A DNA stretch of 64,000 nt, taken from NCBI GenBank assembly GCA_029261875.1, contig JAJDAL010000034.1:85066-149065 (forward strand). The letters run 5' to 3'. This stretch comes from Deltaproteobacteria bacterium (GTDB taxonomy: Bacteria; Myxococcota_A; UBA9160; JAJDAL01). Made by a program: the position numbers and the translations under genes. Each line of letters starts with the position of its first letter. Positions within the stretch are counted from its first letter, which is position 1. Positions 1 to 18,562 of this stretch are shown piece after piece. The notes below the pieces were generated by a model. The model saw nothing but the letters and a program-made list of their open reading frames with translations, searched no databases and was not told the origin of the DNA.

Positions 1-1
1 T

Positions 2-553
2 GGACTAGAAACTGCGGACACCGCTGGCAACGGCCACGACGGTGACCTCATCGGTGGCGACACAGTTGCTTCGTGGGGCACCAATCCGCCTGGTTCGGGC
101 GCAGACTCGGATGGTGACGGCATCCTCGATGGTTTCGATAACTGCGTAGATGACGCCAATCCCGGCCAGGAAGACGCCGACTCCGACCAGGTCGGCGACG
201 CGTGTGACGAGTACCCCGACGACCCCGACAATGAGCAAGCACAGTGCGAAGTAGACCTTGATCAGTGCCTGCTGATCCCGCCGTTCGTGGATTCAGACCA
301 GGACGGTGAAGACGACTCCACGGATTCATGCCTCGACACCCCGGAAGCTGAGACTGTCGATGGCAATGGCTGCTCCATCGATCAGTTTTGTTCAGTCATT
401 AGTGCTGCAGATCGCACCGGTAGCCGGACCTGCAAGAAGGCGGATTGGCATAACGACGAACCACTCATGCGAGGTCGCGAGCGAGACTGCACGATAAACA
501 AGCAGGGTCGTGGAAGGGATGACGACCTCTGCGTTCCCAATCCCGAATCGTAG
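2..553 (+). CDS. Secreted TSP3-repeat protein (A-family copy A1), 5'-truncated by the window edge, ending in the conserved Cys-rich C-terminal module (A-CTD)
   Basis: The frame of listed ORF 287..553 stays open back to nt 2. The translation GHDGDLIGGDTVASWGTNPPGSGADSDGDGILDGFDNCVDDANPGQEDADSDQVGDACD is a close paralog of the middle of 6720..7877. D-x-D-x-DG-x-x-D-x-C TSP3-type repeats are present. The tail GCSIDQFC..CKKADWHNDEPLMRGRERDCT..CVPNPES recurs at 4751..5014 and 17414..17683. Confidence 0.8.
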   Translation, partial: GLETADTAGNGHDGDLIGGDTVASWGTNPPGSGADSDGDGILDGFDNCVDDANPGQEDADSDQVGDACDEYPDDPDNEQAQCEVDLDQCLLIPPFVDSDQDGEDDSTDSCLDTPEAETVDGNGCSIDQFCSVISAADRTGSRTCKKADWHNDEPLMRGRERDCTINKQGRGRDDDLCVPNPES

Positions 554-985
554 TTAGGAGTATCGATGCGTTCCTTTAGCAGAGCTGTTCTAGTGGTCGC
601 GACTGGGATCGTTGCAACGAGTGCCAATGCCATTGACCTACCGGTTGCCTACTTGATCGACTTCAAAGAGTTCAAGAAGAACGTCGTCGCTGGCGCACCA
701 TTGTCGTTTGATCTCCACGCCGAATCGGATTGCAGCGGCAGCGCGGTCTATGGCGAGATGAAGTTCGCCGGGGCCACGGATGTAATTGCCGAGAAGGTGA
801 CCCAACAAAGGGCGAAGGGACAAAAACCGTCCCCGCCCAGGGGTATCCGGCTTTCTACTACGCTGGCTCCTTCCTCGGTCGGTGAGCAGCTGTTTCTCAA
901 GGTGACCGGCGACGGCATCGTTCCGCTGGAGAGTGATTGCCAGCCGCAGGTTTCGGCTATCCCGGGACCGCCCGGTGATCCTTCC
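284..985 (+). repeat. Conserved 'hinge' copy 1: A-CTD, 12-nt spacer and B N-domain
   Basis: Long stretches align by eye at nucleotide level with 17414..18085. One example is gtcgcgagcgagactgcacgat in both copies. The start contexts tcgatgcgttcctttagc also match. Confidence 0.8.
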
Positions 986-1390
986 GAAGTGATGCACCTG
1001 TTCGACGGAGATGGAAACGACCTAGGAGTTTCCATAGGTGGAGGGTCGGCATTCTATGACGAATCCATCGATGCGATCGTCGCACTAACCCCAACGACGG
1101 GCGAGTACGGTGGCGGCGGAGGGGTGTGGTTTGAGTCAAATGACTGTACGGGGCAGGCGTACGTCAAAGCGTTTCTAGTCCAACAATTTATATTCTCTGA
1201 AACCGGCAGCGAATGGGTAGGTGATATTTCAGCCATAACAACCCGCCAATTTCAATCGCAGCTCTCAGGGTCTCCTCATGTTTGCATCCTCACTTCAAAC
1301 ATGGAAACCGTTGTTACCGCCACACCTGTGAGTTCGGGCTTTACGTTCCCTTTCCCCCTGCCGCTCTATCTCGCCCCCGGCACCAACTAA
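566..1390 (+). CDS. Secreted B-family protein P1: conserved N-domain, GPPGDP tract and variable Cys-containing head
   Basis: Leader MRSFSRAVLVVATGIVATSANA. The N-domain IDLPVAYLIDFKEFKKN..KGQKPSPPRGIRL..EQLFLKVTGDGIV..DCQPQ is shared with 1404, 7902, 12432(-) and 17696. The head ends in the Pro-rich TFPFPLPLYLAP. The gene starts 12 nt after the A1 stop. Confidence 0.85.
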   Translation: MRSFSRAVLVVATGIVATSANAIDLPVAYLIDFKEFKKNVVAGAPLSFDLHAESDCSGSAVYGEMKFAGATDVIAEKVTQQRAKGQKPSPPRGIRLSTTLAPSSVGEQLFLKVTGDGIVPLESDCQPQVSAIPGPPGDPSEVMHLFDGDGNDLGVSIGGGSAFYDESIDAIVALTPTTGEYGGGGGVWFESNDCTGQAYVKAFLVQQFIFSETGSEWVGDISAITTRQFQSQLSGSPHVCILTSNMETVVTATPVSSGFTFPFPLPLYLAPGTN

Positions 1391-1403
1391 GGAAGGACCT
1401 ACC

Positions 1404-2213
1404 GTGAGATTCCTAATGCTGATTCTGATCTTCGTTCCAGTAGTGGCCGCAGCCGCCGACATCCCCGTCGAGTACCTCGCCGACTTCAAGGAGTTCAAGC
1501 GCAACGCCATCGTGGGCGACTCGCTCTCCTTCGACCTCTACACCGACGCCACCTGCACCGGAGCTGTGGCTCACGCAGAGCTGAAGTTCGTGGGTGGTGC
1601 CGGGCTCACCGTCGAGAAGACGCTCCCCCAGCGGTCCAAAGGCGAGAAACCCTCGCCGACAAAGGGAGTGCGGCTTCACTCCACGCTGTCGCCGTCGGTG
1701 GTTGCCGAGCAGCTCTACCTCAAAGTGGTGGGCACGGGCGTTGTGGCGCTGGGTGGGGAGTGCCAGCCACAAGCCGCTGCGATCCCCGGCCCTCCGGGGG
1801 AGTCTGCGCAGGTGCTCCACCTCTTCGATGCCAACGATCTCGACCTCGGCATTCTGGTGGATCAGGAGCTGGGGTCTTACACGTTTTTTCGCGAGTCTGA
1901 AGGGGTGTTCCGTGTCAAACTTTCGGGGGCGCTGGACAACAAAACCTTCGTCGAGTACGAAACGCCGGACTGTACCGGGCAGGGTTACGTGAAGGAAAAT
2001 CTCACGGGATCGGTCGTAACCACTGGTGGGGCAGACCTGTTCTTGGTACAGGAAGCGCTTGGCGTTTCGATCGAGCGACAGTCCGAAATCGGCGACGGAG
2101 TCTGCTTTCCCCTCAGCATTGGTACGGCCACCGGAATGGTTCCAGCAGACCCGCTCACGACGGATCTCACATTTCCACTTGTGGTTCCATTCCGAATCGA
2201 ACTGGCGCCGTAG
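1404..2213 (+). CDS. Secreted B-family protein P2
   Basis: GTG start preceded by AAGGAAGG; an alternative ATG lies at 1416. Hydrophobic leader. The N-domain DIPVEYLADFKEFKRNAIVGDSLSFDLY..KGEKPSPTKGVRL..EQLYLKVVGTGVVALGGECQPQ is followed by GPPGES. The head carries the YETPDCTGQGY motif and the tail TFPLVVPFRIELAP. Confidence 0.85.
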   Translation: MRFLMLILIFVPVVAAAADIPVEYLADFKEFKRNAIVGDSLSFDLYTDATCTGAVAHAELKFVGGAGLTVEKTLPQRSKGEKPSPTKGVRLHSTLSPSVVAEQLYLKVVGTGVVALGGECQPQAAAIPGPPGESAQVLHLFDANDLDLGILVDQELGSYTFFRESEGVFRVKLSGALDNKTFVEYETPDCTGQGYVKENLTGSVVTTGGADLFLVQEALGVSIERQSEIGDGVCFPLSIGTATGMVPADPLTTDLTFPLVVPFRIELAP

Positions 2214-2242
2214 AGGCACCGCCCCCGGCACCGACTGATGCC

Positions 2243-2542
2243 ATGACGGAGCCCAAGAGTCTCTTCCTCGTCGCTTTGTCATTGTTGGTAGTTGGCTCTT
2301 CCGCCGCCGACACTTCAACGATTGATACATCCCGCTCCTCACTCGACGAAACTGTGCAACTTGCAAGCGGCTCCCCCTCAGCGTCCGTTGTGGAACAGAC
2401 CGCGCAGAATTGCACCCCCCGCGAACGATGCTGCCGCGTGTGTTCCAAAGGCAAAGCCTGCGGCAACAGTTGCATCCGCAGGAGCTACGATTGCCACAAG
2501 GGACGAGGGTGCGCGTGTAACGCGTACGAGGTCTGCCAATAG
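2243..2542 (+). CDS. Small secreted cysteine-rich protein
   Basis: Leader MTEPKSLFLVALSLLVVGSSA. There are 10 Cys in the last 44 aa (CTPRERCCRVCSKGKACGNSCIRRSYDCHKGRGCACNAYEVC). The stop is 3 nt before the next start. Confidence 0.7.
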   Translation: MTEPKSLFLVALSLLVVGSSAADTSTIDTSRSSLDETVQLASGSPSASVVEQTAQNCTPRERCCRVCSKGKACGNSCIRRSYDCHKGRGCACNAYEVCQ

Positions 2543-2545
2543 ACC

Positions 2546-3130
2546 ATGGAGAAACGTTTCCGACTACCGGTTGCCAGTTGTGACGAATGCCAGGCCGACC
2601 TTGAGCTCCGGGTGGTTCTCTCCGGTGTTCGGCTCTCGGCGTTGACCGTTGACTGCACGGCCTGCGAGTCTCACACGGACCTCCTGGAGGGTTCTCGCCA
2701 TCAGGTCGCCCGATCGAAAGAGAGCCTGAAGCGCGCCTCACGAGAGGCCGCTCGATCGATCAGGGAGGCACGTCGGTTCGTGCCGCGTGACCGAGAAGAC
2801 GTGAAGGAGGCGTTGCGGAACCCCAAGCATCCCTTCACGGCAGCCGTTCTAACGGGTCTTGTCATCGTTGCGATGGAACTGTCCGGCTTCGGAATCTACA
2901 TGGCGGTCACGACGCTTCTGGCGGCTTTGGTGCTGAACCCGGTCGGGTGGGTGGTGGTTCCTCTTGTGGTGGCCATTGCCTTCGCCTACAGGGGGAAGCT
3001 CAAGTCAGACCGGCTCGAAAAGTTGAAGGGCCAGATCGACGATCTTGAAAAGCAGAAGGAGGAAGGGCTGCTGACTCCGGAACAGTTCGAGGCGGCTCGC
3101 GACGAGCTTGTGACGAAGCTTCTATCGTGA
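2546..3130 (+). CDS. Membrane protein with a zinc-ribbon-like N-terminus and a SHOCT-like C-terminus
   Basis: CDEC..CTAC Cys pairs; two long hydrophobic helices (AAVLTGLVIVAMELSGFGIYMAVTTLLAALVL, VGWVVVPLVVAIAFA); a C-terminal GLLTPEQFEAARDELVTKLL that matches the SHOCT pattern. Confidence 0.75.
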   Translation: MEKRFRLPVASCDECQADLELRVVLSGVRLSALTVDCTACESHTDLLEGSRHQVARSKESLKRASREAARSIREARRFVPRDREDVKEALRNPKHPFTAAVLTGLVIVAMELSGFGIYMAVTTLLAALVLNPVGWVVVPLVVAIAFAYRGKLKSDRLEKLKGQIDDLEKQKEEGLLTPEQFEAARDELVTKLLS

Positions 3131-3672
3131 GGTTGATGGAGAGGGGTGTAGGTTCATCATCAACCATACTCCTGGTGGCTTTCCTCGCGACGGGCTGCGC
3201 GACAGCCCCTTCCGGGCCATGCCCGCGAACTGAGTGGGGTGGCGTCTTCAAGGCCGCTACTGGCAACGGCCAACCAATGTTCGGTCCCTGCACAGTCCCC
3301 TACGTCGTGGATGGAGACACCGTGGACGTTCGGTGCGGACGTGTGTGTGACCGCGTCCGGCTCCTCAGGATCAACACGCCGGAAAGAGGTGAGGCTGGGT
3401 ACCAGGAGGCCAAGAGTTCGTTAGAAGCGATGGTTCGCGAAGGAAACGTCTACCTCAGCTTTGAAGTCCCGGGCAAACCGAAACAGGGAGGTTACAAGCG
3501 TCTGTTGGCCTACCTGTACGTCGATGGTCGAAACCTCAACGTTGAGATGATTCGGCAAGGGTGGTCACACTTTTGGACCAAGTACGGGAAGGGAAGGCTC
3601 TTCGAGGCCGATCTCCACGAGGCCGAGCAGGAGGCCAGAAGAACCGGTAGAGGACTGTGGGCCAAACAGTAG
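3127..3672 (+). CDS. nuc: Thermonuclease (staphylococcal nuclease family) lipoprotein
   Basis: Lipobox LATGC. SNase motifs VVDGDTVDV, VRLLRINTPE, RLLAYLYVDGRNLNVEMIRQGW and GRGLWA. The GTG start overlaps the upstream stop as GTGA; an alternative ATG lies at 3136. Confidence 0.9.
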   Translation: MRLMERGVGSSSTILLVAFLATGCATAPSGPCPRTEWGGVFKAATGNGQPMFGPCTVPYVVDGDTVDVRCGRVCDRVRLLRINTPERGEAGYQEAKSSLEAMVREGNVYLSFEVPGKPKQGGYKRLLAYLYVDGRNLNVEMIRQGWSHFWTKYGKGRLFEADLHEAEQEARRTGRGLWAKQ

Positions 3673-3832
3673 GAGGCCTCACGGATAGGGAGTTTTCCCG
3701 ACCCTGCGAGCCTCGCGCGAGACATTTCGCCACCACACGGTGAATCATTGCGACATACGTGAGTGAAATGAGGGATGCTGGCGAAGTAACCGAGGCACAT
3801 TCCTTGTTCACGACAAGCCCAGGAGGAGACTC

Positions 3833-5014
3833 ATGCGTCTCGTTGTCTGTCCGGTGTCTGCCCGCGACATCACCATTGTTGTAGCTGCTCACCTCTGTGC
3901 TCTTCTACTTGGACCAGCGGCTTCGGCGCAAGCTCCGATCAACCTCGAATATCTCTTCAGTCAGTCGGACAACCTGCGGGGTTCTTCAAATAATATTCAG
4001 CTCCGGACGAGAGTGGACGGCGTCACCCAGCCGTTCAACAGCATGTCGATTCAGCACGACGACCTACTGGTAACGATCTCAACCGAGATCTCTGCCAACC
4101 GTAGAACAGCTTCATTCTCCTCGATCGAGTTCTTTGCGTCCTACGCGAGTCCTTCCTTTGACGGAGAGTTCGATCTTGGCTTCGACGGCAAGGTTCCCTT
4201 TCGATTGACGGTCAGGGAGCTGGAATTCCACTGCCTGAACATCAACGCAAATCTAGCCATCAACTTGAACTTTGATGAAACCTTTTCATTCTGCGATGGA
4301 ACACTCACCACAGTATTCGAGGTACTCGGAAACACCGAAACAGTAGTGGAGACTCATCAGTCGGGTATCAACTTGCGGGGCACTTTCATTCCGACGCCCG
4401 ATCTGTCTGAGGTCGCAATAGAGATCTATACAGAGGTCGCCGCTACCTTCGACAACGACGCGTTCAATCTCAATGCGCTCGGACACTCTTTGGAGTTGCA
4501 GCCGAATCTCAGGCTGGTGTTGGATCTTCGGGGCTCTGCTGAATCAGACGCTCCACCACCACCGATTCCGGATGCCGATGGGGACGATGTTCCCGATATT
4601 CGAGACAACTGCCCCGACGAGGCCAACTCAGATCAGTTGGATAGAGATTTCGATTTCGTAGGCGACGCTTGCGACCCCTTCCCCGACGACCGCGACAATG
4701 AACAAGCCGAGTGTGAGGCGGATCTCCTCCTCTGCCAGATCAGCCCCGTATTCGTAGACACCGACGGTGACGGCGAAGATGACTCCACGGATTCATGCCC
4801 GGCCACTCCCGCCGCCCAGGAGGTTGATGGCGACGGCTGCTCTCTGGACCAGTTCTGCGGGCTGGTTGATGCCTCAGACCGAACCGGTAGTCGCGTCTGC
4901 AAAAAGAGCGACTGGAAGAACGACGAGCCGATCATGAAGTCGCGCGATAGGGACTGCACTGTGGATCGGGGTGACAGGGGCAGGGAGGACGATCGATGCG
5001 TTCCGTCCGTCTGA
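3833..5014 (+). CDS. Secreted A-family protein A2: unknown N-domain, TSP3 repeats, short Cys-heptad segment and A-CTD
   Basis: Leader with AASAQA. TSP3 repeats DADGDDVPDIRDNCPDEANSDQLDRDFDFVGDACDPFPDD. Then DNEQAECEADLLLC, followed by the tail GCSLDQFC..CKKSDWKNDEPIMKSRDRDCT..CVPSV. Confidence 0.85.
   Translation: MRLVVCPVSARDITIVVAAHLCALLLGPAASAQAPINLEYLFSQSDNLRGSSNNIQLRTRVDGVTQPFNSMSIQHDDLLVTISTEISANRRTASFSSIEFFASYASPSFDGEFDLGFDGKVPFRLTVRELEFHCLNINANLAINLNFDETFSFCDGTLTTVFEVLGNTETVVETHQSGINLRGTFIPTPDLSEVAIEIYTEVAATFDNDAFNLNALGHSLELQPNLRLVLDLRGSAESDAPPPPIPDADGDDVPDIRDNCPDEANSDQLDRDFDFVGDACDPFPDDRDNEQAECEADLLLCQISPVFVDTDGDGEDDSTDSCPATPAAQEVDGDGCSLDQFCGLVDASDRTGSRVCKKSDWKNDEPIMKSRDRDCTVDRGDRGREDDRCVPSV
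4751..5014 (+). repeat. Partial hinge copy (A-CTD only)
   Basis: FVDTDGDGEDDSTDSC..GCSLDQFC..CVPSV is paralogous to 284..553. The start context gatcgatgcgttcc of the following gene resembles the B-gene start context. Confidence 0.7.
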
Positions 5015-6711
5015 GATGCGAGAGTTTCTGTATCTGCCTGGTTGCGACGGCGCTTATGCCGACAATGGCTGCAGGGTTTCCGTTGGTTCCGGGCGATATC
5101 TTGATTTCGCCGACAATTTACATCTCATGTGCCGCGAGCCGACCGATCCTCGTGAATCCTGTAACGGGCGCGCAGCAGCGCTTGGAGAGCATGCCGCCAC
5201 CTACATCAGTCGCGTTTGCGCCCAATGGCGACCTGTTCCTCACTGATGGAGATGTGCAACGCATCGACCCCGCCACTGGCCTGGTCCTTCAGACCTACCA
5301 AGGTGGCAACCTTCATTCGCCGTATGGAATTTCCGTTAGTCCGAATGGCGAGGTCTATGTGATGGATTCGACGGCCAACATCTGCTTTGACGCTGAAAAT
5401 TTGACCTTAGTGAGGATCGATCCTGTGTCAGGCCAACAGACGTTGGTCACGTCATTTGTCTCGACGCTCGTCGTGGACACTGCGGTCGAACCCACCGGCG
5501 ATATCCTGGTCCTAGACTTGAGTACAGGGGTGATACGAGTCGATGCGACAACAGGTGATCAACAACTGTTGGCCAGCATAACCAGCCCCTTTGGCATTAC
5601 AGTTGAAGATACGGGCCAGGCCCTTGTAGCCGGTGAAGCACTGGTTCGCGTTGATCCAGTTAGTGGAAGCCAAAGCACGGTCTGGTCCGATGAGTTTTCG
5701 CTAGCCGTGGCGGTAGAGCCTTCCGAGAACATCGTCGTTTTTGAAGCCAATGGTGCGCTGATTCGCGTCGCACCGTCAGGTGCGTTTAGTTCAGTGATAT
5801 CGTCCGGCGGATTCTTGCCGGACCTAGTGGGGTTCGTTGATCTTGCGATCATGCCGGGAACGGCTCCGGACGCTGACTCTGACGGAATTCGAGACGATTC
5901 GGACAACTGCCCCAATATTGCGAACTTCGACCAGTCCGACCTCGATGGCGATAGCGTGGGCGATGTCTGCGACAACTGTCCCCAAGTGGCGAATTCTATC
6001 CAGACGGACAACGACGCGGACGGTATCGGAGATTTGTGTGATGCCTGCACCACAACCGCCTGGACCAATCCTCCCACGAACCCGCCCGATCAGAATCCAA
6101 TCAAGTCCCAGGTGAGAGTTACTCATCTCAGCCGTGGACCCGGCGAGCAGCGGATATTGGCGAAGGGCTTCACTAACCCAGCCACGTTTCCATCCAGCGG
6201 TTTGGAAGCTATTGGGTTGCACCTCGCAATCGAGGACTCTGATGGACTGCTCTACGAGGCAAACGTTCCCCCCGGCTTGGTAGGTGCCCTCCAGTGTGGA
6301 TCACGGGATGGATGGCGCGTTTCAACCACCAACAGCGGAAGGACGACATCGCGCTACACCAACCGCACCGGGGCGTTTCCGCCAGGCTGTTTGCCTGGGT
6401 CCGCACAGGGCGTGACATCCATTGTGGTCAAGGACCTGACAACGACCAACAAGCAATCGTTCCAGTACATCGTCAAGACGAAGGACCACAGCCTACTTCG
6501 GGTCCCAACACTGCCGTTGAATCTCGTCCAGTTCGACATTTCCCTTGGAGCGCAGACAACGCCAGGGGAAGCAACTCCCGAAGCCATTGAGGGGCAGTGC
6601 GCGGAATCGAAGTTTGAGGGTGACCCGATTCCTTCCAGCTCCCCGAAACCGTTCTGCAAGGTGCGGACAAGAAGCGGTGAGCTTGATCGCATCGATTGCA
6701 AGGGACAGTGA
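4996..6711 (+). CDS. Secreted protein with beta-propeller-like repeats (NHL/YVTN type by eye), TSP3 repeats and an unknown C-domain
   Basis: Leader MRSVRLRCESFCICLVATALMPTMAAG. Repeated motifs SPYGISVSPNGEVYVMDS, VVDTAVEPTGDILVLD and SPFGITVEDTGQALVAG. TSP3 block DADSDGIRDDSDNCPNIANFDQSDLDGDSVGDVCDNCPQVANSIQTDNDADGIGDLCDAC. The start overlaps the A2 stop by 19 nt. Confidence 0.8.
   Translation: MRSVRLRCESFCICLVATALMPTMAAGFPLVPGDILISPTIYISCAASRPILVNPVTGAQQRLESMPPPTSVAFAPNGDLFLTDGDVQRIDPATGLVLQTYQGGNLHSPYGISVSPNGEVYVMDSTANICFDAENLTLVRIDPVSGQQTLVTSFVSTLVVDTAVEPTGDILVLDLSTGVIRVDATTGDQQLLASITSPFGITVEDTGQALVAGEALVRVDPVSGSQSTVWSDEFSLAVAVEPSENIVVFEANGALIRVAPSGAFSSVISSGGFLPDLVGFVDLAIMPGTAPDADSDGIRDDSDNCPNIANFDQSDLDGDSVGDVCDNCPQVANSIQTDNDADGIGDLCDACTTTAWTNPPTNPPDQNPIKSQVRVTHLSRGPGEQRILAKGFTNPATFPSSGLEAIGLHLAIEDSDGLLYEANVPPGLVGALQCGSRDGWRVSTTNSGRTTSRYTNRTGAFPPGCLPGSAQGVTSIVVKDLTTTNKQSFQYIVKTKDHSLLRVPTLPLNLVQFDISLGAQTTPGEATPEAIEGQCAESKFEGDPIPSSSPKPFCKVRTRSGELDRIDCKGQ
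5869..6048 (+). repeat. Thrombospondin type-3-like Ca-binding repeat block (coding)
   Basis: Four consecutive D-x-D-x-D-G-x-x-D-x-C-D-x-C-P units read directly from the translation. Confidence 0.8.
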
Positions 6712-6719
6712 GGGACAAG

Positions 6720-7877: not shown

Positions 7878-7901
7878 AAAAGAACGAAGCTGGAGGATCT
7901 G

Positions 7902-10913: not shown

Positions 10914-11693
10914 CTAATTTTGATTCGTCTTACACGCCTTGCATACACACGCGTTCGGACACTCATCTGATAAGCCGCTTGCGCCTATGTGACAAGGGCC
11001 ACCGATGCCACCGTACGCCGGTCCACCAATTCCTGCATAACATGGCCCCCCGATTCCATCGTATGCCGGCCCACCAATTCCTGCGTAACATCTGTCACGC
11101 TTCCGGCGCCCTGATTGCTCCTCCGACGACCCCGCATCTAGCAACTCTACCAGCGCGCGAACATAATCATCGTTTCCGTAACGCGACATAAGTGTTTTCG
11201 ACATCTTTCGCCTAGTTTGCGAATCTATCTGGCCGGTCAAAGGTATTTGATTTTCGCGCTGGAAGGTCCGTATCGCTGCGATCGTGTTAGGTCCCTTCTT
11301 CCCGTCAATGACTCCGCATTCATATCCCAACAGCTTCAGTCCTACCTGGACCGCACTCGTCAATTCCGAAACAGACCCTTGTCGCACTCTCTCCGGATTC
11401 CGTCGAACTTTGACCCCGCCTGAGACAGGCGTAACTGACAATGATTTTCCGTTGACACGAAGCTCCCCTCGACTCGGGCAAATCACGACTGATGGATAGT
11501 ACTCGTACATGTACTGGTACTCGAACATCACCTTCCACAGCGATCCATCGGCGAGCTTGAATACTTCGTCATTTCCCATAAATGGTACGGGGCTAATAAT
11601 CGAAGATCGGTGGCACCGCTCGGCATACGCATCCGCTGAAACACCAACGGCAAAGAACGACGTAACTAGAAAAAGAAGGCGCGGGAATTCCAT
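10914..11693 (-). CDS. Secreted peptidoglycan-binding-domain protein with GIGGP repeats and a Cys-rich end
   Basis: Leader MEFPRLLFLVTSFFAVGVSADA. PG_binding_1-like LKLLGYECGVIDGKKGPNTIAAIRTFQRENQIPLTGQIDSQT. C-terminal (Y-x-GIGGP-x)x4 followed by CPNACVCKACK. The start overlaps the upstream stop as TAATG. Confidence 0.75.
   Translation of the reverse strand: MEFPRLLFLVTSFFAVGVSADAYAERCHRSSIISPVPFMGNDEVFKLADGSLWKVMFEYQYMYEYYPSVVICPSRGELRVNGKSLSVTPVSGGVKVRRNPERVRQGSVSELTSAVQVGLKLLGYECGVIDGKKGPNTIAAIRTFQRENQIPLTGQIDSQTRRKMSKTLMSRYGNDDYVRALVELLDAGSSEEQSGRRKRDRCYAGIGGPAYDGIGGPCYAGIGGPAYGGIGGPCHIGASGLSDECPNACVCKACKTNQN
10995..11090 (-). repeat. Four tandem 8-aa Y-x-G-I-G-G-P-x coding repeats
   Basis: CYAGIGGP AYDGIGGP CYAGIGGP AYGGIGGP read from the translation. 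Confidence 0.8.
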
Positions 11694-12034
11694 TACGGAT
11701 CGAAGCAACGAATCTTCCCGGTCCAGGGGGAGTAAATATTGATGTAGTACACAGAGGTTAATGCTGTGAGAAAGCCCTGCAGAAAGCTTCGTTCGGTCTC
11801 GATCTCTTGCACGTGACCCATTCCACACACATCACTCGCGTCAATCTCAATATCGCTCGGGACTAGGCCGAAAATCCAGAAGTTCTGCCAATCATTCTTT
11901 GACTCTTCCCGACCGGAGTGAGGCTGAGTCGGCTCAAATTCTTCCGCATAGAGGTTGATGTAGTGAGTACGGAAACAGCCCGACAACATCACACCTGCGA
12001 GAAGAAGACACATTACACATCGTCGCCAACGCAT
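11693..12034 (-). CDS. Bor/Iss-family-like lipoprotein (copy 2)
   Basis: Lipobox MRWRRCVMCLLLAGVMLSGC. FWIFGLVPSDIEIDASDVCG..VQEIETERSFLQGFLTALTSVYYINIYSPWTGKIRC parallels lambda Bor FFVSGIGQKKTVDAAKICGG..VKTETQQTFVNGLLGFITLGIYTPLEARVYC. Confidence 0.7.
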   Translation of the reverse strand: MRWRRCVMCLLLAGVMLSGCFRTHYINLYAEEFEPTQPHSGREESKNDWQNFWIFGLVPSDIEIDASDVCGMGHVQEIETERSFLQGFLTALTSVYYINIYSPWTGKIRCFDP

Positions 12035-12036
12035 CC

Positions 12037-12333
12037 TCAATTCTTCTCGCGACAGTAGTACGTTGATGAGCGCGGTGAATAGATACCTAGTGTCACTAGG
12101 CTCAGCAGAGCGTCCTCGGCCAACGTCGCCTCTTCGATAGAAGCAACTCCATCCGGACAATGCTCGCGAACGTCTACGGTTCTCGTTGGCGTCAGACCCC
12201 AAAAGAAGTAGTCCTTGCGTTCTTGAACTTCCTGAACTCTACCCGTTGGATCTTCTAGTTCAAAGATCATCGAGTTGCACGCCACGCATCCGGAGATAGC
12301 GAGCGCAAAATCTATTTGGTTGCCGATCTTCAC
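12037..12333 (-). CDS. Bor/Iss-family-like lipoprotein (copy 1)
   Basis: GTG start with AGGAGAA upstream. Lipobox LAISGC. FFWGLTPTRTVDVREHCPDGVASIEEATLAEDALLSLVTLGIYSPRSSTYYC. The stop is 2 nt before copy 2. Confidence 0.65.
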   Translation of the reverse strand: MKIGNQIDFALAISGCVACNSMIFELEDPTGRVQEVQERKDYFFWGLTPTRTVDVREHCPDGVASIEEATLAEDALLSLVTLGIYSPRSSTYYCREKN

Positions 12334-12431: not shown

Positions 12432-13343
12432 CTACTCAGCGCGCGAATGGATCGGCAGAGCGAGAGGTACAGGCATGCCGACCACCGTGCTCAGTACCTC
12501 TCGCGCAGTGACTGCTTCCGGCCTCACTCCGACTGTGTTCATACACCCTGGAGGCGAGAGCAGGTCAATAATCGACTCGAACGGAGCCGATGACACCAGT
12601 TCGTTTCCCCCAACGAAGAAACGGTCAGGTGCGGTAACAGGACCAGTGAAGACGAGCCGAGTTGCGAACTCGAACGGGAGGTACGCGGTCCCGACGCAAT
12701 TCGGAAGCTCAAAGACGATGGCTCCCACCCCGGTGGGTCCGATCAAGAGTCCATTGGACTTGTCGATGAGAACGAATGCATCGAGATCCTCACGGTACGC
12801 CGTAACCGTAGTCAGCGGCGAAAAGATGAGATCCTCTCGGATCAGCAGCCCCAAGTTAACATCGCTGCCGTCGAACACTCGGAGAGTCAGTCCACTCGCT
12901 CCGGGCGGCCCTTTCGCCCCTTCTGGGCCGGACGGCCCCGGTATCGCCGCAGTTTGAACCTGACACTCGCCGCCAATGGGTACGACACCGTCGCCGCTCA
13001 CCTTCAAGTAGAGCTGCTCAACCACAACAGGCGGCCCAAGAGTTGTCCGAAGCCGCACTCCCCTGGGCGGCGACGGCTTTTCCCCCTTGGCTTTCTGCGG
13101 GATGACTTTCTCCACTTGGAGGTCTCCACTCGCCAGAAACTTCAGCTCCGCGTGAAACACCGTCCCGGTGCAGTCCGCGGCCGCGAAGAGGTCAAAGGAA
13201 AGAGAGTTTCCGGCGACGGCCTCTTTCTTGAAGGTCTTAAAGTCCGCGACATACGAAACGGGAAGCTCGACTGCGCTTCCAGAACTTGCGAACGAGAGTA
13301 TGGCGAGTGCAACAATGCACATCCCGAAATCACTGAACTTCAT
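12432..13343 (-). CDS. Secreted B-family protein P4
   Basis: Leader MKFSDFGMCIVALAILSFASSGSA. N-domain VELPVSYVADFKTFKKEAVAGNSLSFDLF..KGEKPSPPRGVRL..EQLYLKVSGDGVVPIGGECQVQ. Six G-X-Y triplets. Head with FELPNCVGTAY and tail MPVPLALPIHS. Confidence 0.85.
   Translation of the reverse strand: MKFSDFGMCIVALAILSFASSGSAVELPVSYVADFKTFKKEAVAGNSLSFDLFAAADCTGTVFHAELKFLASGDLQVEKVIPQKAKGEKPSPPRGVRLRTTLGPPVVVEQLYLKVSGDGVVPIGGECQVQTAAIPGPSGPEGAKGPPGASGLTLRVFDGSDVNLGLLIREDLIFSPLTTVTAYREDLDAFVLIDKSNGLLIGPTGVGAIVFELPNCVGTAYLPFEFATRLVFTGPVTAPDRFFVGGNELVSSAPFESIIDLLSPPGCMNTVGVRPEAVTAREVLSTVVGMPVPLALPIHSRAE
12885..12938 (-). repeat. Collagen-like G-X-Y tract (6 triplets) in P4
   Basis: GPS GPE GAK GPP GAS GLT read directly. 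Confidence 0.8.
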
Positions 13344-13402: not shown

Positions 13403-14026
13403 TCAAGAAGGCGGTGCACAGCACGCGATCGAACGGAAGTCATTGCAGTTCCTCAGGTCAAATGCCCCGTTCGATTCCACCATCAGCCCGGACTCGGCGG
13501 TAAGCCGCCTCCATGCGTCACAAGACATGGAACCTGTCGATCCGCTTGATGGCGTGAAAGCCCCGGACACGTCCGCGATAACACTGTTCGTCGTGCCCCT
13601 AGGGAGCACCACAAAAACAGGTCGGACCCATGCCTCGCCCGATAGGGTTGGGACGTTGACTGTTTCGAGTACTTCCTTACTGGTGCACATCCGGCTATTC
13701 GAGAACTCCGCGTGGCAAGCCGACGTATATTCCAGGACACCATCACCTCCTTTAAACGTCGCGGTGGTAAAGCCCACTAGCTCGTATCGCGGCGACACCC
13801 CCGCCTCGCCCTGTGGCCCCTGCGCTCCATCTTGTCCAGCCGACCCAGCCGGTCCAGGTGGGCCTTCCGATTCCCACGAAATCGCAGCCTCGTTCGACTT
13901 GCACTGGCCCGGGATCGCAACGACACGGAGCTTCCCTGACTTTTGGTGCACACAGCCATCGATGGTTTCGCCTGCAGCCGTTCCAGCTAAAAGAACCGCC
14001 GCGCCAATTGCGATTAGTTCACGCAT
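13403..14026 (-). CDS. Secreted Q-family collagen-like protein Q1 with a Cys-rich endostatin/C-lectin-like C-domain
   Basis: GGAGG RBS. Leader MRELIAIGAAVLLAGTAAG. ETIDGCVHQKSGKLRVVAIPGQCKSNEAAISWE. Eight G-X-Y triplets. C-domain ELVGFTTATFKGGDG..ACHAEF..MC..SCDAWRRLTAESGLMVESNGAFDLRNCNDFRSIACCAP. Confidence 0.8.
   Translation of the reverse strand: MRELIAIGAAVLLAGTAAGETIDGCVHQKSGKLRVVAIPGQCKSNEAAISWESEGPPGPAGSAGQDGAQGPQGEAGVSPRYELVGFTTATFKGGDGVLEYTSACHAEFSNSRMCTSKEVLETVNVPTLSGEAWVRPVFVVLPRGTTNSVIADVSGAFTPSSGSTGSMSCDAWRRLTAESGLMVESNGAFDLRNCNDFRSIACCAPPS
13793..13864 (-). repeat. Collagen-like G-X-Y tract (8 triplets) in Q1
   Basis: GPP GPA GSA GQD GAQ GPQ GEA GVS read directly. Confidence 0.8.
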
Positions 14027-14067
14027 TACCTGCCTCCGCTTAGGGGTTCCCTCCGCCACCGGGAAGG

Positions 14068-14367
14068 TCAATAACAGACGGTGTCCCACACCCAATTTCC
14101 GTATGCATCCTGCCGTCGCACCTGCGTGCAATTATCTGTCCCGATGGGCGGAATATTGAGCCGTTCGACCGGTCTCACTGAAGGCGGAACAATGGGCGTA
14201 ATAGACGGTGGTTGCGGTGGCACGATGTTGATAGTTGAATCACAGATCGGAACATTGGCGCAGTCGCCACTCTCGTCACAGATCCATTCCCAGGTGCATG
14301 ATGCCGCCGCCGGGTTGGCAACTACAATGCACCCGATCAAAGCCAAGATCGCGAAAGTTGATCGCAT
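14068..14367 (-). CDS. Small secreted Cys-rich, Pro-rich protein
   Basis: Leader MRSTFAILALIGCIVVANPAAA. Then SCTWEWICDESGDCANVPICD, a Pro-rich PPQPPSITPIVPPSVRP and the C-terminal CTQVRR..WVWDTVCY. Lies 41 nt upstream of Q1 on the same strand. Confidence 0.6.
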   Translation of the reverse strand: MRSTFAILALIGCIVVANPAAASCTWEWICDESGDCANVPICDSTINIVPPQPPSITPIVPPSVRPVERLNIPPIGTDNCTQVRRQDAYGNWVWDTVCY

Positions 14368-14873: not shown

Positions 14874-15416
14874 CTAACGATACGTCGGCAGCAGAACGTA
14901 GCCCCCGTTCCACTCGGTACAGATGGTAGTTGCCACCGTCGCCGCCCTTACGCCTCCCTCGACCTCATCACACTTCTTCTTCGAGATGAATGGACCTACT
15001 GTTTCCTCCACATAATTTATGTGCAACCTACGCTTCACCCCTGAAGTCATTTCGTAGACTGTGAACACCCAAAGGTCTCCCATAAGACCGTCGCGGGAAA
15101 GGCTCTCGTTGAGAACGATCTCGCTTTCGGCCGCAGCGCGCTTGTACGCAGAGCACATCGCACGAGATCGTTTAGCCATGCTGGCAAATATCTCGCGGAT
15201 CATCTCATCTGCTTCATCGTCATTGTCATCGATCTTCCTGGCGCACCGCTCCTCCCTCCGGTCAATGTTTGCCGCGTACAGGCGTGCGAACTCAATCGAA
15301 ATAGGCTGCGCCCTCACTTCGGCCGTTGTTCTCTCGATAAATTGATCCAGAGGCTCTTCGCATCCCGAAACCAATATGACGAGAGATACTAGACCGAGGA
15401 AATCTCTAATCACCAC
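14874..15416 (-). CDS. Hypothetical lipoprotein
   Basis: Lipobox LVILVSGC. Visibly AT-richer than its neighbours. No family recognised. Confidence 0.6.
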   Translation of the reverse strand: MVIRDFLGLVSLVILVSGCEEPLDQFIERTTAEVRAQPISIEFARLYAANIDRREERCARKIDDNDDEADEMIREIFASMAKRSRAMCSAYKRAAAESEIVLNESLSRDGLMGDLWVFTVYEMTSGVKRRLHINYVEETVGPFISKKKCDEVEGGVRAATVATTICTEWNGGYVLLPTYR

Positions 15417-15830
15417 ATCCTCCTTTGGTTCCGCTTCCGTGAACTAGTGGACCACTCGAAAGGTTAACTCGCCTACACAAACCTGACTCAGAATCCTTCC
15501 CTAGGTACCCGCAGTCGGCATGTGGTTTGCGTTGTGAAGAAACTAGGGGGTGAGGAACGATGAACGAGTTCGATCGAGTGGCGATTCGCCGCGCCATGCG
15601 GATCGTGGATGGGTGTGACCCAGGACCCCACCCGGGCCTTAGGGTCTCACTGTTGTCAGAGGAAATGCAGGACGAGCTGCGAGGGCTGATAGGGCGCTTG
15701 CCCTATATCACAGGGCTTCCGGTAGCCCAGATAGTCCTCCTAGTCTTCTATAGCTTCGGCTTGCGACCCTGATTCCCACCGCACCGAGTTCCACGCGTAG
15801 AATGGCCTCTGGCTTGCACAGGAGTTGGAC

Positions 15831-16409
15831 ATGTTGAAACAGACTCTTGTTCTCTTGGTCATGTTGGTTCTAGTTCCTGGCATCGCGGCTACCGAGACGA
15901 TCAACGGCTGTGTCCACCAGAAGTCCGGGAAGCTTCGGATCGTCGGTATTCCGGGACAGTGCAAGAGCAGCGAAGCACCGATCTCTTGGGAGGCTGAGGG
16001 ACCGCCCGGTCCCGAAGGGGCGAAGGGAGATAAGGGCGATAAAGGTGACCCCGGTGATCCCGCACCCCAGGCACAGCCGGTGGAACTCGTAGGTTTTACC
16101 GCGGCGCAAATCGCTGGCACGGACTCGTTCTTCGCGCTCAACACAGCCTGCGTCGATGAATTCCCCGGTAGTCACTTCTGCACAGCCACAGACATTGCAC
16201 AAGTATCCGTTCTGCCTGCCGGACTCATAGGCGATGCGTGGTTTACGCCAGCGCCCGGTCCAGATCTCAACTTCTTGAGCAGTTCTCGTGCCTGTAGTGG
16301 CTGGTCGCCTGGTGGCTCAACTGGCCTCCGCATCAATCACATCGGCGTAATAGTTCAGGGTGTGTGTAACCAATCCTTTTCGGCATCGTGCTGCGCACCC
16401 GCACCGTAA
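15831..16409 (+). CDS. Secreted Q-family collagen-like protein Q2
   Basis: CAGGAG lies 7 nt before the ATG. Leader MLKQTLVLLVMLVLVPGIAA. ETINGCVHQKSGKLRIVGIPGQCKSSEAPISWE. Seven G-X-Y triplets. C-domain VELVGFTAAQIAGTD..ACVDEF..FC..ACSGWSPGGSTGLRINHIGVIVQGVCNQSFSASCCAP. Confidence 0.8.
   Translation: MLKQTLVLLVMLVLVPGIAATETINGCVHQKSGKLRIVGIPGQCKSSEAPISWEAEGPPGPEGAKGDKGDKGDPGDPAPQAQPVELVGFTAAQIAGTDSFFALNTACVDEFPGSHFCTATDIAQVSVLPAGLIGDAWFTPAPGPDLNFLSSSRACSGWSPGGSTGLRINHIGVIVQGVCNQSFSASCCAPAP
15999..16061 (+). repeat. Collagen-like G-X-Y tract (7 triplets) in Q2
   Basis: GPP GPE GAK GDK GDK GDP GDP read directly. Confidence 0.8.
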
Positions 16410-16411
16410 CC

Positions 16412-17683
16412 ATGGCGTTTCGATTCAGACTTCCCGAGGCTCCTATGAAATGTGTCCATGTATTCGTTCTCCTCAGTTCCATGTTCCTTCTCGCGCCCCG
16501 AGCTACAGCGGAGATGGTGCCGCTGTTGATTGACCCGGTTTCAATCTCCGTCTCTGTCAGGATCACACAAGGCGAAGGTGCGCCGGTCGAGACAGACAAT
16601 TCAGGTACTGCTTCGGCATCCGCGCAGCTACATAGGAACTTGCTTAGTAATTCTTTCGGCGAGGGCAGTTTAAGCGCAGCCGTAGAAGCCGACCGGATCA
16701 GTTTTGCGGGAGCCGCTAGTGGCTTTAATACCGCAGGGGTCGGTAGTAGCCTAGTTAGGATTGTCTTGAGTAGCGAACTGGAGGTTGCGTTTGATGTCCC
16801 CGATATCGGATTTGCGCTTACGCCGGTCGTCCTGCAGTTCGTCAATGTTTCTCCTCCGAGCGCAACAATATCCATCTCATTCTTCAGCACACTTCTGAAC
16901 GCTGAGCTAACTACCCTCAATCAGACGATAGGTTCTGAAGATGCAGTTGTCCTCGACCTCCTTCCCGGAGATCGGATTATTGTCTCCGGAACCGTACAGG
17001 CTGGTGCCTTGTTCGTTCCCCCTTTCAACGGATCGGGGTCATTCTCAAACTCGTCCCAGTTCCGTTTTCAGGTATCGGACAATCCGAACAACCTTGTCGA
17101 GTGCCAGTCGAACCTCACTCAATGCGTCTCCGATTTGGGGGGTTGTTTGACCAATGCCGCAACCTGCGAGTCCGATCTAAATCTGGCCTTGGGGGATCTC
17201 GCATCGTGTAACGCAACCCTCACCCAACTGGCAACAGATGTTGCTTCATGTAACGACAGCCTTACCGCGTGCTCCACCGACCTCACACAAACGACAACCA
17301 GTCTCTCCCAATGCAGTACCGCTCTCGATTCTACAAGCACGCAGCTATCTGAGGCGCAATCGAGTCTAGACGCAGCCCTCTCCGATTTGGCGCAATGCCT
17401 TTTAGATCCCGGACTACAAGACAGTGATGGTGATGGCGTTCCAGATCCAGGAGATCTATGCCCAAACACAGCCACTACCGATCTCGCCGACGCCCTGGGC
17501 TGTTCACTCCACCAATTTTGCTCGATGGTCAACGCTACGAATCGAGTTGGCAGTCGGGTCTGCAGGAAATCCGATTGGGTCAATGATGAACCTCTGATGA
17601 AGGGTCGCGAGCGAGACTGCACGATCGACAAACGCGGCCGCGGACGAGATGACGATCTCTGCGTGCCCAATCCAGAATTCTAG
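16412..17683 (+). CDS. Secreted A-family protein A3: unknown N-domain, about 100 aa of heptad Cys/Leu coiled-coil-like segment, one TSP3 unit and A-CTD
   Basis: The ATG lies 3 nt after the Q2 stop; an alternative ATG at 16445 gives MKCVHVFVLLSSMFLLAPRATA. Tail DSDGDGVPDPGDLCPNTATTDLADALGCSLHQFC..CRKSDWVNDEPLMKGRERDCTIDKRGRGRDDDLCVPNPEF. Confidence 0.8.
   Translation: MAFRFRLPEAPMKCVHVFVLLSSMFLLAPRATAEMVPLLIDPVSISVSVRITQGEGAPVETDNSGTASASAQLHRNLLSNSFGEGSLSAAVEADRISFAGAASGFNTAGVGSSLVRIVLSSELEVAFDVPDIGFALTPVVLQFVNVSPPSATISISFFSTLLNAELTTLNQTIGSEDAVVLDLLPGDRIIVSGTVQAGALFVPPFNGSGSFSNSSQFRFQVSDNPNNLVECQSNLTQCVSDLGGCLTNAATCESDLNLALGDLASCNATLTQLATDVASCNDSLTACSTDLTQTTTSLSQCSTALDSTSTQLSEAQSSLDAALSDLAQCLLDPGLQDSDGDGVPDPGDLCPNTATTDLADALGCSLHQFCSMVNATNRVGSRVCRKSDWVNDEPLMKGRERDCTIDKRGRGRDDDLCVPNPEF
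17093..17398 (+). repeat. Heptad-periodic Cys/Leu segment (coding)
   Basis: Cys-to-Cys spacings are 7,7,7,14,14,7,14,28 residues. Leu/Val sits 3 residues before each heptad end. Counted directly in LVEC QSNLTQC VSDLGGC LTNAATC ESDLNLALGDLASC NATLTQLATDVASC NDSLTAC STDLTQTTTSLSQC ...LSDLAQC. Confidence 0.85.
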
Positions 17684-18085
17684 ATAGGAAATTCGATGCG
17701 TTCCTTTAGCCGAGTTTCTTTAGTACTAGCCACTGTAACTTTCGCGATGACTGGTCATGCCATTGACCTACCTGTGACCTACCTCGCCGACTTCAAGGAG
17801 TTCAGGCGAAACGCCATCGCTGGCGATTCACTCTCCTTCGACCTCTACACCGACGACGCCTGCACGGGGGTCGTGGCTCACGCGGAACTGAAGTTCGTGG
17901 GCGGTTCCGGGCTCACCGTCGAGAAGACGCTGCCCCAGAAGGCCAAGGGTCAGAAGCCGTCACCGACGAAGGGCGTGCGGCTCCACACGACGCTGTCGCC
18001 CGCGGCGGTGGCCGAGCAGCTCTACTTGAAGGTGACGGGCACCGGCGTCGTCGCGTTGGGAGATGAGTGCCAAGTGCAGGTGGCG
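17414..18085 (+). repeat. Conserved 'hinge' copy 2: A-CTD, 12-nt spacer and B N-domain
   Basis: See 284..985. The flanks (A body upstream, B head downstream) are unrelated between the two copies. Confidence 0.8.
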
Positions 18086-18562
18086 GGGATTCCTGGACCG
18101 GAAGGACCCAAGGGCGATCCCGGACCCTTGCTGGATGTCGCGGCGCGAGTCTATAGCGCGAATGACATAACGGTGGCGCGGTTCTCCAGCCAAGCGCTGA
18201 GTTTTCCAGAGGAGCGATGGGATACGGCTGCCCTGCATGACCCAGCCCAGCCATCAAGAATCGTGATTCCAGCAAGCGGGAACTACCTGATCTATGCGAA
18301 TCTGGCCTGGAGCGCTGCGGACCTGTTTGGAACGGAGCGCTTTGTGATGCAGTTTCGAGTGAATGGGTCACAGATAACCGCCTCACAAACCAACAATGCC
18401 GACGGGCTCCCTTTGAACCCAACCCATTCTCTTAGTACTGCCGCGCTTTTAGTAGCCGGAGACTACTTGGAGGTTGTAGTAGAGCACAGTGCCCCGAGCA
18501 ACCGGCGCATCGTGGCTCTTCCCGACTACTCACCGGACTTCGGAATCGTTCGTCTCCCATAA
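17696..18562 (+). CDS. Secreted B-family protein P5 with a C1q/TNF-like head
   Basis: Leader MRSFSRVSLVLATVTFAMTGHA. Conserved N-domain. Tract GIP GPE GPK GDP GPL. The head motifs IVIPASGNYLIYANLAW..FVMQFRVNGSQI..STAALLVAGDYLEVVVE..SPDFGIVRLP match the C1q jelly-roll pattern. Starts 12 nt after the A3 stop. Confidence 0.85.
   Translation: MRSFSRVSLVLATVTFAMTGHAIDLPVTYLADFKEFRRNAIAGDSLSFDLYTDDACTGVVAHAELKFVGGSGLTVEKTLPQKAKGQKPSPTKGVRLHTTLSPAAVAEQLYLKVTGTGVVALGDECQVQVAGIPGPEGPKGDPGPLLDVAARVYSANDITVARFSSQALSFPEERWDTAALHDPAQPSRIVIPASGNYLIYANLAWSAADLFGTERFVMQFRVNGSQITASQTNNADGLPLNPTHSLSTAALLVAGDYLEVVVEHSAPSNRRIVALPDYSPDFGIVRLP
18086..18130 (+). repeat. Collagen-like G-X-Y tract (5 triplets) in P5
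   Basis: Read directly from the translation. Confidence 0.8.

Follow-up and report, generated by a model that had tools for sequence, protein, structure and literature searches.

The window analysed here is a 64-kb stretch of contig JAJDAL010000034.1. Its first 18,562 positions contain a cluster of genes which, on balance, is best read as island cargo encoding Sec-exported, Cys-containing modular proteins, the core of which is a five-fold expansion of one base-hinge-head family. Five paralogues in this cluster share an N-terminal module, here termed N1 (a beta-sandwich of ~105 amino acids [aa] ending in CQxQ). N1 is followed by a hinge of glycine-X-Y (GXY) triplets and then by a head, which is of one type (head A) in four of the five proteins and TNF-like in the fifth. 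An earlier reading of this DNA (the original prediction) had proposed a set of exported, oligomeric binding or matrix proteins in a cassette organization. Both ideas fit the findings described below, with an adhesin or lectin function still to be counted as conjecture; the conserved N1 core of the paralogues had escaped that reading, as had the neighbouring recombinases and the distinct base composition of the region.

The gene set of this region (19 complete genes and one partial gene) was compiled from the open reading frame (ORF) listing, scoring of GC content at third codon positions (GC3) and translation. Leaders were called with a home-made heuristic, not SignalP, based on a basic n-region, an uncharged hydrophobic core (h-region) and either an AXA-type site or a lipobox. 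Sixteen of the 19 complete genes bear such a leader. Twelve of these leaders suit signal peptidase I (such as SANA/IDLPV, AAVA/IDLPV and GIAA/TETINGC, where the slash marks the site) and four are lipoprotein leaders with the boxes LATGC, LSGC or LVSGC. Because the same heuristic is too permissive in a control (positive for 18 of 35 genes elsewhere in the window), the enrichment of leaders in the cluster is only semi-quantitative. The cysteines of the cluster proteins are probably disulfide-bonded, and the host bacterium appears to be a diderm, judging from MlaA, the lipoboxes and the Bor-like genes. Its CCA-adding enzyme, used for taxon assignment, has relatives only at 40% identity or below, and these come from unrelated phyla. 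The cluster begins before position 1, as the window edge truncates the gene at 1-553 and at least 1.7 kb more lies upstream. No source searched gives a functional name for the cluster proteins (the sole label seen is "hypothetical protein"), and none of these proteins matches a characterized system in Pfam, NCBIfam, PHROG or homology searches, in agreement with the original prediction that this is not a described bacterial system.

The N1 and N2 protein families

Four N1 paralogues are encoded on the forward strand (566-1390, 1404-2213, 7902-8756 and 17696-18562) and one on the reverse strand (12432-13343). Each protein starts with a signal peptide, which precedes N1, the hinge and the head. 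The 566-1390 protein has the leader SANA/IDLPV, two triplets (GPPGDP) and head A, and matches the N1 hidden Markov model (HMM) with an E-value of 4e-65. The 1404-2213 protein also has two triplets (GPPGES) followed by head A and is identical to the database relative P0002 from residue 5. The 7902-8756 protein, which equals P0001, consists of N1 (residues 22-126), five triplets and head A (residues 146-281). Head A follows six triplets in 12432-13343, and a TNF/C1q-like head follows five triplets in 17696-18562.

These proteins are mosaics. Amino acid identity between paralogues is 53-89% in N1 and just 22-33% in the heads. Nucleotide identity is 75-90% through N1 and is random in the signal-peptide codons and just past the GXY hinge. 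When 7902-8756 is compared to 17696-18562, the N1 modules are 89% identical and the heads are unrelated. For the N1 modules of the window paralogues, dN/dS is 0.07-0.23 and dS is 0.6-2; N1 is therefore under strong purifying selection and its copies are old. Both N1 and head A have two conserved cysteines, pairs that fit an extracytoplasmic protein.

N1 and head A have no match among Pfam, NCBIfam or PHROG models. An N1 census was taken by a HMMER profile scan of 1.84 billion cluster representatives (clusters at 50% identity) and found 623 N1 clusters at E ≤ 1e-3, 413 at E ≤ 1e-10 and 81 at E ≤ 1e-30. The notion of an extremely rare family, which a word-index search with six relatives would have allowed, was dropped on this count. 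A genome scan using patterns from the five window paralogues detected no N1 relatives, the patterns being too specific to this genome. Among 145 N1 representatives, 19 have long collagen above the Pfam cut-off at the same position as the hinge (best E-value: 1.2e-15). Other representatives are fused to beta-helical repeats ending in Peptidase_S74 (two proteins) or to FGE-sulfatase domains (two proteins), and further fusions involve pentapeptide repeats, a phage Collar domain, SVSGG-type repeats and right-handed beta-helix-like regions. The same TNF-like head is found on N1 elsewhere, with or without collagen (P0066 and P0042). Most of these fusion partners are typical of fibrous or trimeric proteins, as is established for S74 chaperone domains and TNF/C1q heads. 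Judged by these architectures, N1 is a constant N-terminal part found in a wide range of exported proteins, most of them fibrous.

The AlphaFold2 (AF2) model of the 7902-8756 protein, based on a 51-sequence alignment, has a mean predicted local distance difference test (pLDDT) score of 89.3. It shows an all-beta N1 (residues 22-126), a low-confidence flexible hinge and an all-beta head A (residues 146-281). Foldseek found no significant neighbour of this model in the PDB, where the best matches are generic Ig/FN3-like two-domain proteins (best E-value: 0.085, template modelling score at most ~0.27), or in BFVD (best E-value: 7e-3, probability 0.25). A search of PDB sequences with the N1 family profile returned nothing.

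Seventeen other N1 loci were compared, 16 from JGI metagenomes and one on an ENA contig. Most of these have one copy, and two short loci have two adjacent N1 matches. As N1 loci elsewhere are mostly single-copy, the five copies within 18.6 kb represent a local expansion. The ENA contig (L002, which carries P0006) also contains, at 6158-9355, a 1065-aa leader-bearing ORF as the upstream neighbour and, just downstream, a 155-aa fragment of a GpA_ATPase (terminase-like) protein.

GXY tracts are present in seven proteins of the cluster and are 2-8 triplets long, exactly as counted in the original prediction. No protein in the window reaches the Pfam Collagen (PF01391) cut-off of 27.2 bits; 13403-14026 and 15825-16409 have sub-threshold matches, the best scores being 20.3 and 17.3 bits. 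Because homologues have long, Pfam-significant collagen at the same position, the tracts are not due to chance and are shortened collagen stalks. Across the family, stalk length ranges from 0 to more than 30 triplets.

The two remaining proteins with GXY tracts have a different base, termed N2. Their genes are located at 13403-14026 on the reverse strand (also given as 13403-14131) and at 15825-16409 on the forward strand. The proteins have in common a leader (a signal peptide), a module of the form "INGCVHQKSGKLRIV..C..E.PISW" (in 13403-14026, "ETIDGCVHQKSGKLRVV..C..E.AISW"), a tract of 7-8 GXY triplets (eight in 13403-14026 and seven in 15825-16409) and a Cys-rich head. The 15825-16409 protein equals P0007 from residue 3, and its head has eight cysteines and the end CCAPAP. 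An N2 search identified thirteen more metagenomic proteins; in those inspected, N2 precedes collagen and varied heads. Five of the thirteen carry head A, which was recognized over its full length by a head A HMM made from N1 proteins only (E-values: 2.5e-11 to 2e-6). The presence of head A on both N1 and N2 proteins indicates that bases and heads recombine freely.

The original prediction had likened the Cys-rich head to endostatin, C-lectin and DUF1554 folds. This identity was abandoned after four tests (sequence, profile, Pfam and hhalign) gave it no support. Pfam returned nothing for this head even at E ≤ 10, sequence and profile searches of the PDB returned nothing relevant, and hhalign against human endostatin (with the endostatin sequence checked against 1bnl) gave a probability of 0.2%. 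In a chimeric AF2 model the head has a pLDDT of ~30, such that no fold was obtained.

The input for that model was an artificial chimera in which 15825-16409 was fused to residues 128-288 of 17696-18562, the TNF-like head. The latter part has a pLDDT of 50-75. A Foldseek search with this head gave 174 matches at E ≤ 1e-3, and all 50 of those listed belong to the TNF superfamily (probability 1.0, TMt 0.4-0.5). The best E-value is 3e-5, and the proteins matched include TNF-alpha, TL1A, TWEAK, 4-1BBL and CD40L. A four-sequence profile of the head matches CD40L (E-value: 0.11) and a domain of PDB entries 9eul/9euf (E-value: 1.1e-5). Pfam detects neither C1q nor TNF in 17696-18562, and BclA_C is matched below its cut-off (E-value: 0.051, 13.9 bits against 38). 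Together, these three weak-to-moderate lines moderately support a TNF/C1q-type jelly roll. The C1q/TNF-like head of the original prediction has moderate support from Foldseek and from weak profile matches, with Pfam remaining below cut-off. Members of the TNF/C1q superfamily are obligate homotrimers of jelly-roll protomers.

TSP3 proteins and other genes of the cluster

The motif DxDxDGxxDxxD, typical of TSP3 repeats, occurs one to three times in each of five proteins, all encoded on the forward strand. The partial gene at 1-553 (3' part) encodes Laminin_G_3, three TSP3 motifs, a short Cys coiled coil and a C-terminal module termed CysTail; it is part of repeat D3. The exported 3833-5014 protein has an N-terminal domain of ~210 aa with no known family, three TSP3 motifs, a CxxxxxxC coiled-coil stub and CysTail. 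The exported 4996-6711 protein has an NHL-repeat beta-propeller (Pfam NHL E-value: 2.8e-6), three TSP3 repeats and a C-terminal domain of ~220 aa with no known family. The exported 6696-7877 protein, with a probable start at 6720, contains Laminin_G_3, two TSP3 motifs, a Cys coiled-coil stub, an acidic double-disulfide repeat and the tail GCGLGAELVLLIPLLQRIRRKRSF. The exported 16388-17683 protein, with a probable start at 16445, contains an N-terminal domain of ~190 aa with no known family, 15 xxxLxxC heptads, one TSP3 motif and CysTail.

The original prediction had reported TSP3 repeats in five proteins, a LamG_3-like domain and a heptad Cys/Leu segment, and all three were recovered. Pfam TSP_3 (PF02412) scores above its cut-off only in 4996-6711 (E-value: 1.8e-11, 44 bits against 25). 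It is sub-threshold in 3833-5014 and 16388-17683 (18.8 and 17.6 bits, respectively) and gives no match at E ≤ 0.01 in 6696-7877 or 1-553, notwithstanding the motif. The 6696-7877 protein does match the TSP3 regions of NCBIfam models (E-value: 3.7e-9). This protein has the conserved domain Laminin_G_3 (PF13385; E-value: 3.7e-11, 43.8 bits against 27.6, model positions 13-151 of 151). Laminin_G_3 is also found in its upstream paralogue, the full gene of 1-553, which encodes 420 aa and is located at 8726-9988 of the Logan contig L031, an assembly that overlaps the window.

The products of 1-553 and 6696-7877 are 87% identical over 86 aa up to the sequence AQCEVDL. Past this point, 1-553 switches to CysTail and 6696-7877 continues with the acidic double-disulfide repeat and a Cys-hydrophobic-Arg/Lys C-terminal tail. 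CysTail spans 93 aa, is rich in Cys and forms the C-terminus of three TSP3 proteins (at 1-553, 4790-5011 and 17400-17680). It has the pattern "GCS..QFC....R.GSR.C.K.DW.NDEP....R.RDC......GR..D..CVP", is 56% identical between 3833-5014 and 16388-17683 and has no match among Pfam or NCBIfam models.

The fifteen xxxLxxC heptads of 16388-17683 are consecutive (17060-17400, residues ~226-340). Twelve of them have Leu at position 4 and ten have Cys at position 7, with Cys spacings of 7, 14 or 28. This pattern suggests a coiled coil in which cysteines, in the core or beside it, form a ladder. In 3833-5014, 6696-7877 and the gene at 1-553, the TSP3 repeats are followed by shorter CxxxxxxC stubs. The tail of 6696-7877 (7800-7877) is tripartite, with a Cys motif, a hydrophobic stretch containing Glu and Pro, and a basic Arg/Lys cluster. 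It may be a lineage-specific sorting signal, to judge by this composition. NCBIfam CTERM models do not match this tail even at E ≤ 5, and no CPBP protease (the cognate myxosortase type) was seen in the window.

The other genes of the cluster are a mixed group. On the forward strand, 2243-2542 encodes a small exported Cys-rich protein of 99 aa with ten cysteines and no family match. The following gene (2546-3130) has no leader; its product has CxxC pairs, internal transmembrane segments and a weak SHOCT-like C-terminus, is probably a membrane protein, and gives a weak PADLOC match to a LeoBC region (E-value: 1.1e-5). The 3127-3672 gene encodes a staphylococcal-nuclease-type lipoprotein (lipobox LATGC; Pfam SNase E-value: 7.2e-14), and a second SNase lipoprotein gene is located upstream of the window (L031 7733-8206).

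The remaining genes are on the reverse strand. The exported 10914-11693 protein has a PG_binding_1 domain (Pfam E-value: 3.4e-11) and a C-terminal YxGIGGPx repeat. The latter is encoded by a 48-nt tandem repeat (D7, 83% identical, 10992-11087) that specifies YxGIGGPxYxGIGGPC units. Two tandem Bor-like lipoprotein genes (11693-12013 and 12037-12333) match Lambda_Bor (PF06291; E-value: 3e-11), and 14874-15416 encodes a lipoprotein with the lipobox LVSGC and no family match.

Genomic setting and alternative explanations

The cluster is part of a low-GC region that extends to about 34.7 kb. GC content in this region is 0.55-0.60 and GC3 is 0.61-0.73, compared to 0.62-0.66 and 0.75-0.83 in the chromosome. 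GC3 steps up at about 34.8 kb, and chromosomal genes begin at about 34850 with MlaA. L031 is 100% identical to and collinear with the window in their overlap and adds 9.4 kb upstream, at a GC content of 0.52-0.59. In the same low-GC region, L031 encodes two large proteins (1-7478) that end in related trypsin/HtrA-like protease domains and have no obvious leaders. A long ankyrin-repeat array (at least 744 aa) is present in one of these, and the other has a length of 847 aa.

Downstream of the cluster, the window encodes an HTH regulator (19783-20316, forward strand), a small serine recombinase/resolvase (20437-21258, reverse strand, the real start probably being internal) and a DUF3987 protein (22572-25166, forward strand). 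Two paralogous large serine recombinases (25688-27214 and 33079-34668, forward strand) surround about 5.9 kb of cargo. They are in direct orientation 7.45 kb apart, with 72% nucleotide identity in the first 300 nt and 82% in the last 92 nt (repeats D2 and D6), and this pairing may reflect two nested or tandem integrative elements. Between them are genes for an RCC1-like protein, an SdpB-like membrane protein, a fatty-acid hydroxylase, an F420H2-dependent quinone reductase and a DUF5681 protein. The region thus has the marks of a mobile element, namely one small and two large serine recombinases, DUF3987 and a composition unlike that of the flanking chromosome, and was probably acquired horizontally. 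Based on the recombinases and the GC3 step, the secretome cluster is cargo either within or adjacent to an integrative region spanning at least ~44 kb.

Two further features were observed in this part of the window. A 134-nt direct repeat (144-nt spacing, 71% identity, 27421-27698) lies inside a leader-bearing gene with no family match (27414-28265). Further exported proteins are encoded outside the low-GC region, at 37694-42422: an S8 subtilase of 1163 aa that has a fervidolysin-type prodomain and, after it, a leader-bearing protein of 342 aa for which the RHS and Peptidase_M91 matches are weak. A PADLOC scan of the non-secreted island genes found no defence system.

Could these proteins be host-mimicry effectors of a symbiont or pathogen, possibly derived from eukaryotes, that engage animal matrix or immune receptors? 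The list of modules (collagen, TNF/C1q, TSP3, LamG, NHL and ankyrin) overlaps with those of animal extracellular matrix and immune proteins, two large ankyrin-repeat or trypsin-like proteins are encoded just upstream, and the region looks horizontally acquired. At the sequence level, however, no cluster protein resembles an animal protein beyond an E-value of ~0.1. TSP3, Laminin_G_3 and NHL are ordinary bacterial domain families, and the TSP3 regions match only bacterial NCBIfam models (MtsC and Omp28-related), far below the equivalog cut-offs. The original prediction had framed the cluster in terms of animal extracellular-matrix modules; the modules are present, but this framing is overstated. 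Furthermore, the JGI relatives of N1 are mostly single-copy among ordinary chromosomal genes in genomes with a GC content of 0.64-0.72 (the samples, going by their ID ranges, are presumably mostly soil), and neither the PDB nor BFVD contains a eukaryotic or viral structural neighbour of N1 or head A. Host mimicry is therefore considered unlikely.

Somewhat less likely again is a secreted scavenging or "public goods" island, with a core of nucleases and proteases and with the N1 and TSP3 proteins as polymer-binding accessories, for example for extracellular DNA or polysaccharide in a biofilm matrix. The two SNase lipoproteins, the two trypsin-like proteins upstream and the PG-binding protein would be expected in such an island, and carbohydrate-binding proteins often have LamG or NHL heads. 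However, most of the genes do not encode enzymes, the proteases upstream have no clear leaders and nothing ties N1 proteins to enzymes at other loci.

A remnant prophage or tailocin, in which the cluster would be a cassette of collagen-stalked receptor-binding fibres with exchangeable tips, is improbable. PHROG tail-fibre families do match the GXY tracts, the TNF-like head matches the 9eul/9euf domain ("GP-PDE domain-containing protein / ORF58", E-value: 1.1e-5), the region has Bor-like lipoproteins and recombinases, and a Peptidase_S74 or Collar domain forms the C-terminus of some N1 relatives. Nevertheless, every member has a Sec signal peptide, which virion proteins are not known to carry. 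No capsid, portal, terminase, tail or baseplate gene was found in the 64-kb window or the 9.4 kb upstream, where island genes were scanned for virion structural and packaging genes with Pfam and PHROG, other window genes with Pfam and NCBIfam, and the upstream contig with Pfam. PHROG matches are limited to the GXY tracts and one LamG region, and neither N1 nor N2 has a relative among 2.9 million IMG/VR contigs. A prophage origin was rejected based on the PHROG and IMG/VR results.

A recombinase-driven variation system (a shufflon or invertible cassettes), in which different heads would be switched onto an expressed N1 gene, is very improbable and was rejected: a small serine recombinase is located 1.9 kb from the last paralogue and one paralogue is on the opposite strand, but all paralogues are complete genes that have leaders of their own, the N1 copies are old (dS 0.6-2), inverted repeats of 25 nt or more are absent, no pairs resembling recombination sites flank the heads, and the Logan assembly is identical to and collinear with the window. 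This system would also be favoured by a 30-nt, 83% complementary match between 12910-12939 and 15998-16027, in the GXY hinges of an N1 gene (reverse strand) and an N2 gene (forward strand). Both hinges encode GPEGAKG at this site, and the match could be due to chance or be a trace of exchange at the hinge.

Several points also weigh against the favoured reading of the cluster as exported island cargo built around an expanded base-hinge-head family. Leader prediction is heuristic, and the enrichment, though regarded as real, is roughly measured. The TNF-like call depends on a low-confidence chimeric model and on weak profile matches. The collagen tract cannot be what oligomerizes every member, since it is reduced to two GXY triplets in two N1 paralogues and is missing from some relatives. 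Ordinary chromosomal genes surround N1 in the four longest of the other N1 loci, and no neighbour is conserved among these. No anchor, partner or secretion system specific to N1 turned up, no att sites were seen, and the left end of the island is beyond both the window and the 9.4 kb recovered upstream. Finally, the functional roles are putative and drawn by analogy.

Proposed model and comparison with known systems

The model proposed for the base-hinge-head proteins draws on what N1 is joined to elsewhere (S74-terminated fibres, long collagen and TNF-like heads), which suggests a trimeric base-stalk-head analogy. Trimerization, surface location, docking through N1 and ligand binding all enter the model by this analogy. 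Exported chains would assemble as trimers, with either the head or N1 as the nucleus and the GXY tract as the zipper. N1 would be the constant base, through which the molecule docks to other N1 domains or to a common partner, and the variable head would bind the ligand, following the same logic as BclA, collectins and C1q. The TSP3 proteins would be Ca-binding, oligomeric surface or matrix partners of the base-stalk-head proteins. A bolder version of this model is possible but doubtful. In that version, the N1/N2-hinge-head proteins would be an undescribed class of secreted trimeric recognition molecules similar to collectins and C1q. N1 would be their docking base, possibly with a new fold, and heads would be exchanged by recombination at the collagen-coding hinge. 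The island would then be a mobile, expanded receptor repertoire, a counterpart of variable pattern-recognition or adhesin families.

If the model is correct, it defines an unannotated family of moderate size (623 clusters at 50% identity) and implies that bacteria build base-stalk-head proteins combinatorially from two bases, variable stalks and many heads. The cluster would be a tractable model for the domain-swapping evolution of collagen-stalked recognition proteins and a source of short, naturally trimerizing collagen scaffolds. The finding bears on no long-standing open question.

Secreted-protein islands are common, and parts of this one resemble several known systems. Phage tail fibres and receptor-binding proteins also have a constant N-terminus and a swappable tip, and some N1 relatives have S74 or Collar domains. 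The proteins described here differ in having Sec leaders, no phage context and no family member in IMG/VR.

For the TSP3 proteins, the closest named match is the NCBIfam model of the myxobacterial MtsC ("cell-cell cohesion MYXO-CTERM protein"), a region of which is matched by the TSP3 regions of 4996-6711 (E-value: 3.1e-20), 3833-5014 (E-value: 4.9e-7) and 6696-7877 (E-value: 3.8e-4). As the scores are far under the equivalog cut-off (72 against 350 bits), only the repeats are common to these proteins and MtsC. The tail of 6696-7877 is similar to the MYXO-CTERM/JDVT-CTERM class in its Cys motif, hydrophobic stretch and Arg/Lys cluster. Cys-type sorting signals have been described for Myxococcota and others, and the hydrophobic stretch of MYXO-CTERM lacks residues such as the Glu and Pro found in this tail (bioRxiv 10.1101/2023.06.07.544157).

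Animal proteins of the collectin, C1q, CTRP and Cthrc1 type have the same plan as that proposed for the N1 and N2 proteins: a signal peptide, an N-terminal oligomerization region, a collagen stalk and a trimeric head. In contrast to these, N1, head A and the Cys-rich head have no detectable animal homology, and the stalks are far shorter. Independent pairings of bacterial collagen and C1q-like heads have been reported from metagenomes (PMC7058181). The likeness to collectins and C1q is architectural and is most simply taken as convergent.

The closest bacterial parallel in module order is provided by BclA-type proteins of Bacillus (also Scl1/Scl2, C. difficile BclA1-3 and Pasteuria fibres), which have an N-terminal module, a variable GXY stalk and a C-terminal TNF/C1q-like head. 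C1q-like heads on collagen stalks are a known bacterial theme (PMC7058181 and references therein). The differences are as follows. The N-terminus of BclA is a short exosporium-targeting peptide, whereas N1 is a folded beta-sandwich. The sequences contain no exosporium-targeting motif or LPXTG, and their N-terminus is a cleavable signal peptide followed by N1. Here the host is apparently a diderm, and all of the proteins carry signal peptides of the classical type. The GXY tracts have only 2-8 triplets and are below the Pfam Collagen cut-off, four of the five N1 heads (head A) are not recognizably C1q-like and have no PDB neighbour, and there is no sequence homology to BclA beyond an E-value of 0.05. 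Bacterial collagen-like proteins with C1q-like heads are already known; the novelty lies in N1 as a domain family, in head A, in the way bases and heads are exchanged combinatorially, and in the local expansion of the family in a recombinase-bearing low-GC region.

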